NCBI RefSeq assembly: GCF_003018255.1 | Contig: NZ_CP027440.1 | Source of the DNA: Escherichia coli | GTDB lineage: Bacteria; Pseudomonadota; Gammaproteobacteria; Enterobacterales; Enterobacteriaceae | Direction: 5' to 3' (one strand) | DNA: 64,000 bases | Part shown: positions 62,036-64,000 of the stretch, piece after piece | Position numbering within the stretch: position 1 is the first letter of the stretch | Layout: every line of letters begins with the position of its first letter | Position numbers: made by a program

Positions 62036-64000
62036 TAAGCCTATTATTGGGTCCTTTGGTGAACGATCAACAAAGGGCCACTAGCACACCTGATTCCTCT
62101 CTAAATACCCTATCCGAACCTTCTCTTTTGTAACGTTCTAAATATATTCCTAAAAATCTTCAATTCATTGTGACCACAAGTTTTTCTTCGCTTTTTCGTA
62201 TGAAGATACTGTCATTAAAATAATAGAAAAGGATTTTACGATGAGCGGAAAACCGGCGGCGCGTCAGGGCGACATGACGCAGTATGGCGGTAGCATTGTC
62301 CAGGGTTCTGCCGGGGTACGTATTGGTGCCCCCACCGGTGTGGCCTGTTCGGTGTGCCCCGGCGGGGTGACGTCCGGTCATCCGGTCAATCCGCTGCTCG
62401 GTGCGAAGGTCCTTCCCGGCGAAACCGACCTTGCCCTGCCCGGCCCGCTGCCGTTCATTCTCTCCCGCACCTACAGCAGTTACCGGACAAAAACGCCCGC
62501 GCCGGTGGGGAGCCTCGGCCCCGGCTGGAAAATGCCTGCGGATATCCGCTTACAGCTGCGCGATAACACACTGATACTCAGTGATAACGGCGGCAGAAGC
62601 CTGTATTTTGAGCACCTGTTTCCCGGTGAGGACGGTTACAGCCGCAGCGAGTCACTCTGGCTGGTGCGCGGCGGCGTGGCGAAACTGGATGAAGGTCACC
62701 GGCTGGCCGCACTCTGGCAGGCGCTGCCGGAAGAGCTTCGCCTGAGTCCGCATCGTTATCTGGCGACGAACAGTCCGCAGGGGCCGTGGTGGGTATTCGG
62801 CTGGTGTGAGCGGGTGCCGGAGGCGGATGAGGTGCTGCCTGCGCCGCTGCCGCCGTACCGGATACTGACCGGGCTGGTGGACCGCTTCGGGCGCACACAG
62901 ACGTTTCACCGTGAGGCTGGCGGCGAATTCAGCGGCGAAATCACCGGCGTGACCGACGGCGCAGGCCGTCACTTCCGGCTGGTACTGACCACGCAGGCGC
63001 TGCGGGCAGAAGAGGCCCGGCAGAAGGCCACTTCCGGCGGGACGGAACCGTCCGCTTTTCCTGATACCCAGCCGGACTACACGGAATATGGCCGGGACAA
63101 CGGTATCCGTCTGTCTGCCGTGTGGCTGACGCACGACCCGGAATACCCGGAGAATTTACCTGCCGCGCCGCTGGTACGCTATGGCTGGACGCCGCGCGGC
63201 GAACTGGCGGCGGTGTATGACCGCAGCAATACACAGGTGCGCAGCTTTACTTACGATGATAAATACCGGGGCCGGATGGTGGCGCACCGTCACACGGGCC
63301 GGCCGGAAATCCGTTACCGTTACGACAGTGACGGGCGGGTGACAGAACAGCTAAACCCGGCAGGCTTAAGCTACACGTATCAGTATGAGAAAGACCACAT
63401 CACCATCACCGACAGCCTGGACCGCCGTGAAGTGCTGCACACGCAGGGCGAAGGCGGGCTGAAGCGGGTGGTGAAAAAGGAACACGCGGACGGCAGCGTC
63501 ACGCAGAGTCAGTTTGACGCGGTGGGCAGGCTTAAGGCACAGACGGATGCCGCAGGCCGGACGACTGAGTACAGCCCGGATGTGGTGACCGGACTCATCA
63601 CGCGCATCACCACGCCGGATGGCAGGGCATCGGCGTTTTACTATAACCACCACAGCCAGTTAACGTCAGCCACCGGGACTGACGGGCTGGAGTTGCGCAG
63701 GGAATATGATGAATCCAGCCGTCTGATTCAGGAAACTGCCCCTGACGGCGATATCACCCGCTACCGTTATGATAATCCACACAGTGACTTACCCTGCGCA
63801 ACGGACGATGCCACCGGCAGCCGGAAAACCATGACATGGAGCCGTTACGGTCAGTTGCTGACCGTCACTGACTGTTCCGGTTATGTAACCCGTTATGACC
63901 ATGACCGTTTTGGTCAGATGACGGCGGCGCACCGCGAGGAAGGGCTGAGTCAGTATCGCGCATACGACAGCCGTGGACAGTTAATTGCGGTGAAAGACAT

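Follow-up and report, generated by a model that had tools for sequence, protein, structure and literature searches.

What kind of element begins where a stretch of Escherichia coli DNA breaks off inside a GC-rich open reading frame (ORF), how would its product reach a target cell, and which toxin lies just beyond the edge? The stretch in question, hereafter called the window, comprises 64,000 nucleotides, and its last 1760 nt belong to an Rhs gene of which the 3′ part is out of view. Our overall reading, to which we assign a probability of about 0.85, is that of an Rhs toxin gene whose product would be delivered by a type VI secretion system (T6SS) and which, in this strain, probably ends in an RhsC-type tip followed by the immunity gene ybfB. 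Within this reading, the gene identity, the locus, the domains of residues 1–586 and the locus structure in relatives are direct observations.

An Rhs gene cut by the window edge

The ORF starts with an ATG at 62241–62243 on the + strand and can be translated through 586 stop-free codons up to 63998, where the window runs out. What is seen here is the beginning of a clade I gene for an Rhs polymorphic toxin, located in the nikR..yhhJ interval, an ordinary element of a long-known kind. The following features can be distinguished in and around it.

62039–62240, + strand: AT-rich spacer from the nikR stop to the Rhs start, the left boundary of the Rhs element (35.6% GC; comparison with K-12)
62230–62233, + strand: Shine-Dalgarno-like AGGA, 7 nt 5′ of the ATG (sequence reading)
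62241–64000, + strand: clade I Rhs core ORF, its first 586 codons (5′ 42%), truncated at the window edge (open frame, NF041261)
62241–62381, + strand: N-terminal module, residues 1–47, with one PAAR-type repeat and an 18-residue linker ending at H47|P48 (PDB search, Tse5 alignment)
62244–62327, + strand: PAAR-type repeat, residues 2–29, SGKPAARQGDMTQYGGSIVQGSAGVRIG (alignment to PAAR spike proteins)
62376–62609, + strand: DUF6531 domain, the N-terminal plug of the Rhs shell, residues 46–123 (Pfam PF20148, E 5.5e-18)
62610–63998, + strand: first part of the YD-repeat shell, residues 124–586 (Pfam RHS_repeat, TIGR01643, Tse5 shell alignment)

The assignment is carried by several profile families. 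Residues 1–586 match positions 1–594 of the 1261 positions of NCBIfam NF041261 (RHS_core, "RHS element core protein") with 1188 bits, a score that stays below the whole-protein cut-off of 2000 bits only because the window ends; the full-length Rhs protein of the nearest complete genome, JNE23-011, reaches 2619.7 bits against the same model. The YD repeat of TIGR01643 is found with an E-value of 4.7e-21, and Pfam RHS_repeat (PF05593) gives five matches at E≤0.001 and a sixth at 0.0028, all between residues 318 and 568. Both hallmarks of Rhs polymorphic toxins, namely YD-repeat/RHS sequence and DUF6531, are present in the window ORF, and because the NF041261, TIGR01643, DUF6531 and RHS_repeat matches coincide, the Rhs identity is not a matter of chance.

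These matches bear out the sequence-only reading, which had placed the start of an Rhs element here. The N-terminus that it gave, MSGKPAARQGDMTQYGGSIVQGSAGVRIGAPTGVACSVCPGG, is reproduced exactly, but its start at 62240 lies one base too early, the true ATG being at 62241. It had also called the body very GC-rich, in agreement with a GC content of 62.3% in the Rhs stretch against a window mean of 50.9% (GC3 70.6%); elsewhere in the window, stretches of 1760 nt reach 59.8% at most. Likewise, the toxin tip does lie outside the window, as full-length relatives have 1397–1411 aa against the 586 codons visible here. No further Rhs-related sequence was found in window positions 1–62000.

Chromosomal site and upstream region

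The Rhs gene lies directly 3′ of nikABCDE-nikR, which is the rhsB site in K-12. In their survey, Jackson et al. 2009 (PMC2935791) list the interval nikR..yhhJ as "position 9" with clade I, and the occurrence of Rhs elements here is already known, with descriptions going back to the K-12 era. A contiguous nikE-nikR-rhs junction is present in 2098 of 5426 complete E. coli genomes (about 39%, counted where at least 80% of a 3-kb query is covered) and is therefore a common feature. The significance of the present gene is small beyond its correct annotation.

The 202-nt spacer is 100% identical to the region upstream of K-12 rhsB, and no match to it precedes K-12 rhsC; with rhsC and other Rhs elements, the homology sets in at the ATG. 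On the + strand of the spacer, a promoter scan found no consensus sigma-70 promoter, and no intrinsic terminator was detected there, with none of consensus type between nikR and rhs; no Rfam family matched the spacer. An imperfect hairpin at 62050–62079, just past the nikR stop (-16 kcal/mol, z -1.47, no T-run), is not distinctive.

The locus beyond the window in the closest genomes

The window is colinear over all 64 kb with JNE23-011 (NZ_AP045067.1), at 99.43% identity and with no more than 8 differences within the final 10 kb, and this genome serves as a proxy below. Among the 5426 complete genomes, just JNE23-011 and JNE112863 exceed 99% over 25 kb, all others reaching at most 97.7%, and no complete RefSeq genome is closer than 99.6% over that distance. 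The rhs genes of these two differ from the window at 4 of 1759 nt (99.77–99.8% identity); at the protein level, F186 and S493 of the window correspond to L and G in the proxy.

In both genomes rhs has 1397 codons, and its stop overlaps the ATG of a 108-codon ORF. Next come an orphan core fragment of ~490 nt, an ISAs1/H-rpt transposase gene (yhhI), a partial ISAs1 copy and yhhJ. The proxy protein includes the Rhs-associated core (TIGR03696 at residues 1170–1247, PF03527, DPIGL...DPLGL), and GC shows the classic drop, from 56–68% in the core to 41–47% in the tip and 32% in ybfB.

Residues 1–586 of the window protein share 95.7–96.1% amino acid identity with K-12 RhsB and RhsC, and the downstream part in the proxy tells the two apart. 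Compared with K-12 RhsC, the proxy Rhs shows 95.6% identity along its entire 1397 aa, the 150-aa tip included, and the 108-aa ORF of the proxy is 98% identical to YbfB. The identity of the proxy Rhs to K-12 RhsB, on the other hand, ends at residue 1254, and at the DNA level the match to the K-12 rhsB locus is lost where the core ends (near codon 1238) and returns in the H-rpt. By these alignments an RhsC-type element occupies the rhsB site in the proxy, consistent with the exchange of tips among clade I loci that has been described previously (PMC2935791).

Both K-12 elements thus resemble the locus in part. With the RhsB element (nikR-rhsB-yhhH-yrhC-yhhI-yhhJ) the window shares the site, an identical upstream spacer, 95.7% of the first 586 aa and all of the first 47, and the proxy has the same H-rpt (yhhI, 96.6%) and yhhJ; the tip/immunity module of the closest relatives, however, is not RhsB-CT/YhhH. 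With RhsC-YbfB (kdpA..ybfA, "position 5") the homology of the proxy sets in at the ATG, covers the tip and ybfB and extends as far as the first part of the orphan ybfO, whereas the chromosomal site is another one, an upstream match is missing, and the tip of the window strain is read from its relatives.

Which tip does the window strain carry?

Across strains, the nikR..yhhJ site holds at least three tip/immunity modules, namely the RhsC tip with YbfB, a 174-aa tip with a 189-aa ORF, and the K-12 RhsB tip with YhhH. The expectation that a variable C-terminal tip with its immunity gene would follow downstream is thus well founded for this site. The RhsC-type module can be found in DETEC-S792, whose rhs is 97.5% identical to the window; SCU-109 (97.5%) and C1 (96.9%, with an rhs annotated as frameshifted) have the 174-aa tip, the 189-aa ORF and an array of orphan immunity genes. 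Because DETEC-S792 and SCU-109 carry different tips at the same 97.5%, similarity in the 5′ core does not predict the tip type.

The flanking alleles provide a second handle on the question. From an exact look-up of the window's NikD (880 index blocks), five long contigs with this very NikD were compared. Two of them (L012 and L014) have an intact 1397-aa Rhs followed by the 108-aa ORF; L013 retains the tip in an rhs with four small indels; in L015, in spite of gaps in the assembly, both the tip and the 108-aa ORF are preserved; and L016 encodes a tip-less Rhs of 1066 aa that runs straight into ISAs1. Altogether, the RhsC-type tip with the 108-aa ORF is found in the three closest complete genomes and in four of the five long contigs.

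The arrangement in L016 can be explained to the base. A 470-bp direct repeat (99.6% identical), formed by core nt 2695–3164 and the orphan fragment, brackets the tip and ybfB (JNE23-011 L001 6026–6495 and 7897–8366), and L016 is the exact product of recombination across it, with the 3′ end of the core, the tip and ybfB deleted. It provides a concrete example of how tip and immunity gene can be lost together through a core/orphan repeat. A truncated core without a tip, the finding that the sequence-only reading had named as speaking against itself, is thus seen in one close relative.

Even closer to the window are two draft contigs, L018 (2 differences in 12.7 kb) and L022 (0 mismatches in 13.9 kb apart from the extra A of the window in nikE), which are essentially identical to it; both end inside rhs. 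The same holds for the sublineage-specific NikB allele, which occurs only in draft contigs ending inside rhs. Contig L021 has this allele too, but with an identity of only 97.2% it was not accepted as a proxy. The predicted full-length protein, composed of window residues 1–586 and proxy residues 587–1397, has no record on exact look-up.

From these relatives, we consider it probable that the window strain has an intact RhsC-type tip module with YbfB. The most likely unseen order downstream would then be the RhsC-type tip, YbfB, the orphan core fragment and the ISAs1/H-rpt element. Two other outcomes have to be weighed against this one. The gene might be a dead remnant, with its core truncated or frameshifted downstream and its tip and immunity gene lost, and decay of this sort is visible nearby: in the repeat-mediated tip loss of L016, in the frameshifted gene of C1, in the four small indels of L013 and even in the window itself, where the neighbouring nikE has a frameshift (see below). 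Yet the frame is unbroken over all 586 codons in view, the gene in the closest complete genomes runs undamaged through 1397 codons, and four of the five long contigs keep both the tip and the 108-aa ORF, which makes a dead remnant unlikely. A little less likely again is an intact gene with a tip of another type (RhsB/YhhH, that of SCU-109, or one not yet described). It draws on the same diversity of at least three modules at the site, on the tip exchange among clade I loci (PMC2935791) and on the failure of the 5′ core to predict the tip; but the genomes that are locally more than 99% identical, as well as the wider NikD-allele set, are of the RhsC type wherever a tip is present. An intact RhsC-type module therefore remains our preferred reading for the window strain.

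Layout of the N-terminal part and a proposed secretion model

The best solved homologue of the window fragment is Tse5 of Pseudomonas aeruginosa (PA2684; PDB 8cp6), with an E-value of 5.5e-66, and the fragment also aligns to other solved T6SS Rhs cages. Residue 1 of the Tse5 shell chain (8cp6_B) falls on P48 of the window protein, where PVNPMLG in Tse5 faces PVNPLLG. In Tse5, the N-terminal fragment 1–47, called PAAR-like, is cleaved off at K47|P48, and DUF6531 is the N-terminal plug that anchors this fragment and holds its residues 30–47, while residues 1–29 are not resolved in the cryo-EM map (PMC10684867). The window protein has the same build: a short N-terminal fragment of 47 residues that ends at the conserved Pro48, a DUF6531 plug and a homologous YD shell, with PVNP(M/L)LG from residue 48 in both proteins. 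The two differ in the residue before the cut, K47 in Tse5 and H47 in E. coli, as well as in their setting, as Tse5 has a pore-former tip and is encoded beside its vgrG, whereas the window Rhs has no adjoining vgrG.

By homology to Tse5, the 47-residue module most likely docks the protein on the VgrG spike tip and is probably cut off between H47 and P48; DUF6531 would then plug the YD-repeat shell, and the shell would enclose the toxin. Beyond the window one would expect the Rhs-associated core (an aspartyl autoprotease with a DPxGL motif), a tip of ~150 aa and the overlapping immunity gene. A T6SS with its genes at another place in the genome would propel the loaded spike into adjacent bacterial cells, and the immunity protein would protect the siblings.

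Searched alone against all PDB sequences, residues 1–47 have four matches, all of them PAAR spike-tip proteins (9rce_c, E 8.9e-4; 4jiv_D, 0.011; 4jiw_D, 0.27; 8gra_J, 0.84), and each alignment puts residues 2–29 on the third (last) PAAR repeat. The Pfam model PAAR_motif (PF05488) has no significant match in the window protein (i-Evalue 0.18, 12.5 bits, residues 3–20 on model positions 52–69 of 70). Canonical PAAR spike-tip proteins (PF05488; 4JIV, 4JIW), whose last repeat is the one that aligns, have three repeats in about 90 residues, whereas the E. coli module has a single repeat of about 28, and with only 47 residues before the Tse5-type cut site a three-repeat cone is not present. As far as sequence goes, the PAAR similarity is real but is that of one repeat out of three.

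The label "PAAR-like", which had been given to this N-terminus earlier, fits published usage because the papers on Tse5 use the same term, its N-terminus being called a "cryptic PAAR-like domain" (PMC7376260). The label stands for the one repeat (E 9e-4 at residues 2–29) and falls for a PAAR domain as such (Pfam E 0.18).

Residues 1–47 are 100% identical in K-12 RhsB, K-12 RhsC and SCU-109, and 44 of the 47 are kept in a second, vgrG-linked Rhs of the proxy genome, a conservation consistent with a shared VgrG-docking role. With one third of a PAAR cone, the module would have to cap VgrG in a noncanonical way, for example with three Rhs N-termini per spike or through completion by another partner. 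We put this forward tentatively, jointly with a proposal on the tip that is given further on.

Secretion apparatus and a second cargo locus

According to the annotation of the colinear proxy, the window contains neither a T6SS structural gene nor a vgrG, apart from the Hcp-domain gene yhhZ, and the window Rhs is not genetically linked to a vgrG or a T6SS cluster. JNE23-011 has its T6SS and vgrG at aspV, about 3.3 Mb from the rhs site. This cluster (L011 9686–45518) comprises tssA, B, C, E, F, G, H, J, K and M, icmH/dotU as tssL, tagH and vasI, as well as two hcp genes, a vgrG directly followed by another Rhs, and several ISAs1 copies. One VasL-domain gene in it is annotated as frameshifted, so that the activity of the JNE23-011 T6SS is not certain. 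Overall, the vgrG-linked Rhs shares 74% identity with the window protein, and about 65–70% in the shell. That no apparatus is seen is an effect of the window, given the full T6SS with vgrG that the nearest complete genome encodes at aspV, and should not be over-read from 64 kb.

Outside the Rhs element, the window holds another locus of this kind.

25117–26786, + strand: yhhZ (Hcp-fused toxin, 392 aa; 25117–26295) and the overlapping yrhA (164 aa) (ORFs, Pfam)

The N-terminal part of YhhZ matches Pfam T6SS_HCP (E 8.8e-11) and its C-terminal part, weakly, HNH (E 0.013); the colinear proxy annotates the two genes as tssD and yrhA. They make up a second, unlinked T6SS-type toxin/immunity pair and lie at the edge of the most divergent patch of the window (85 differences from the proxy in 24–26 kb). 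The window had been credited with two potential contact-dependent toxin systems without a visible apparatus. What stands is the presence of an Hcp-fused YhhZ and an Rhs protein, with no apparatus gene in the window; what has to be amended is their class, as they are T6SS-type cargo and not CdiA/CdiB. Contact-dependent inhibition of the CdiA/CdiB type was considered for the Rhs gene and rejected, since Pfam and NCBIfam give only Rhs-type domains and the colinear annotation has no such genes. The window thus holds two unlinked T6SS cargo loci.

It could still be argued that the Rhs protein is not type VI cargo at all, acts within its producer or leaves by another route, and has a PAAR tetrapeptide at its N-terminus merely by coincidence. 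No vgrG adjoins the gene, the Pfam PAAR match is not significant, and E. coli K-12, which is not known to have a T6SS, keeps intact Rhs genes all the same. In the literature, unlinked E. coli genes of this kind are treated as orphan PAAR-Rhs genes whose VgrG partner, or exporter, is unclear, if there is any (PMC7216683). Against this, the only PDB matches of the 47-residue module are PAAR spike proteins, and Tse5, the nearest solved homologue, shares the 47-residue layout and is a T6SS effector. Moreover, the vgrG-linked paralogue keeps 44 of the 47 residues, while its shell has diverged to about 65–70%, and the proxy genome has a full T6SS. We therefore regard a role outside type VI secretion as very unlikely and retain delivery by a T6SS as the reading of choice.

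The RhsC-type tip in the proxy genome

Everything that can be said on the tip itself comes from the proxy, where it occupies L001 7076–7525 and corresponds to residues 1248–1397 of K-12 RhsC. No Pfam domain was found in it, NCBIfam gave no match beyond the core of the proxy Rhs, and the PDB holds no sequence relative of the tip. It has only 33 homologues, and those with a named source all come from Enterobacteriaceae. In the family alignment, the motifs KPLH..GG.GE.SGPD, HQY, CGGQD and PGK are invariant or nearly so, and all nine cysteines (nine of nine) are conserved.

A structural model of the tip, of moderate confidence, is similar to thiol hydrolases of the permuted papain-like type (NlpC/P60-LRAT-PPPDE), the T6SS effector TseH among them. 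The conserved C118 (in NCQDW) is placed at the start of a helix, with H30 and Q47/D48 on strands, as expected for a papain-like fold. Among polymorphic toxins, tips with a papain fold form a recognised class (PMC3482391). The RhsC-type tip may represent an unannotated family of papain-like thiol-hydrolase toxins, with C118, H30 and D48/Q47 as predicted catalytic residues. The cell envelope would be the target of such a tip, and neutralisation would come from the membrane protein YbfB, which has three hydrophobic segments and so would fit an envelope-directed toxin. Taken jointly with the noncanonical capping of VgrG, we give this proposal clearly less than even odds. It does offer a testable hypothesis, at the level of the fold, for the uncharacterised toxin tip of K-12 RhsC.

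Other observations in the window

In nikE (60825–61632), the window has six A's at 61134–61139, where the proxy has five and K-12 reads CAAAA. The extra A splits the gene into ORFs of 113 and 161 aa, and an intact NikE of 268 aa is found in L018, L022 and all other relatives. Either the run of six is a mutation private to this strain, or the homopolymer was misread in sequencing; the frameshift product had no match on exact look-up.

The differences between the window and JNE23-011 are clustered, with 254 of 361 at 14–26 kb and 81 at 50–54 kb, and most of the remaining sequence is identical. The clusters at 14000–26000 and 50000–54000 look like recombination patches. In the portion of the 50–54 kb patch that it reaches (from 50064), L018 is identical to the window by direct count; L022 shares this patch as well.

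Finally, two further loci can be placed through the colinear proxy annotation. A doc/phd type II toxin-antitoxin pair lies between ugpB and livF, at about 35093–35688 of the window (L002 36177–36772 in the proxy), and a chaperone-usher fimbrial operon is located upstream of glgP, at about 1–6900 (L002 825–7980).
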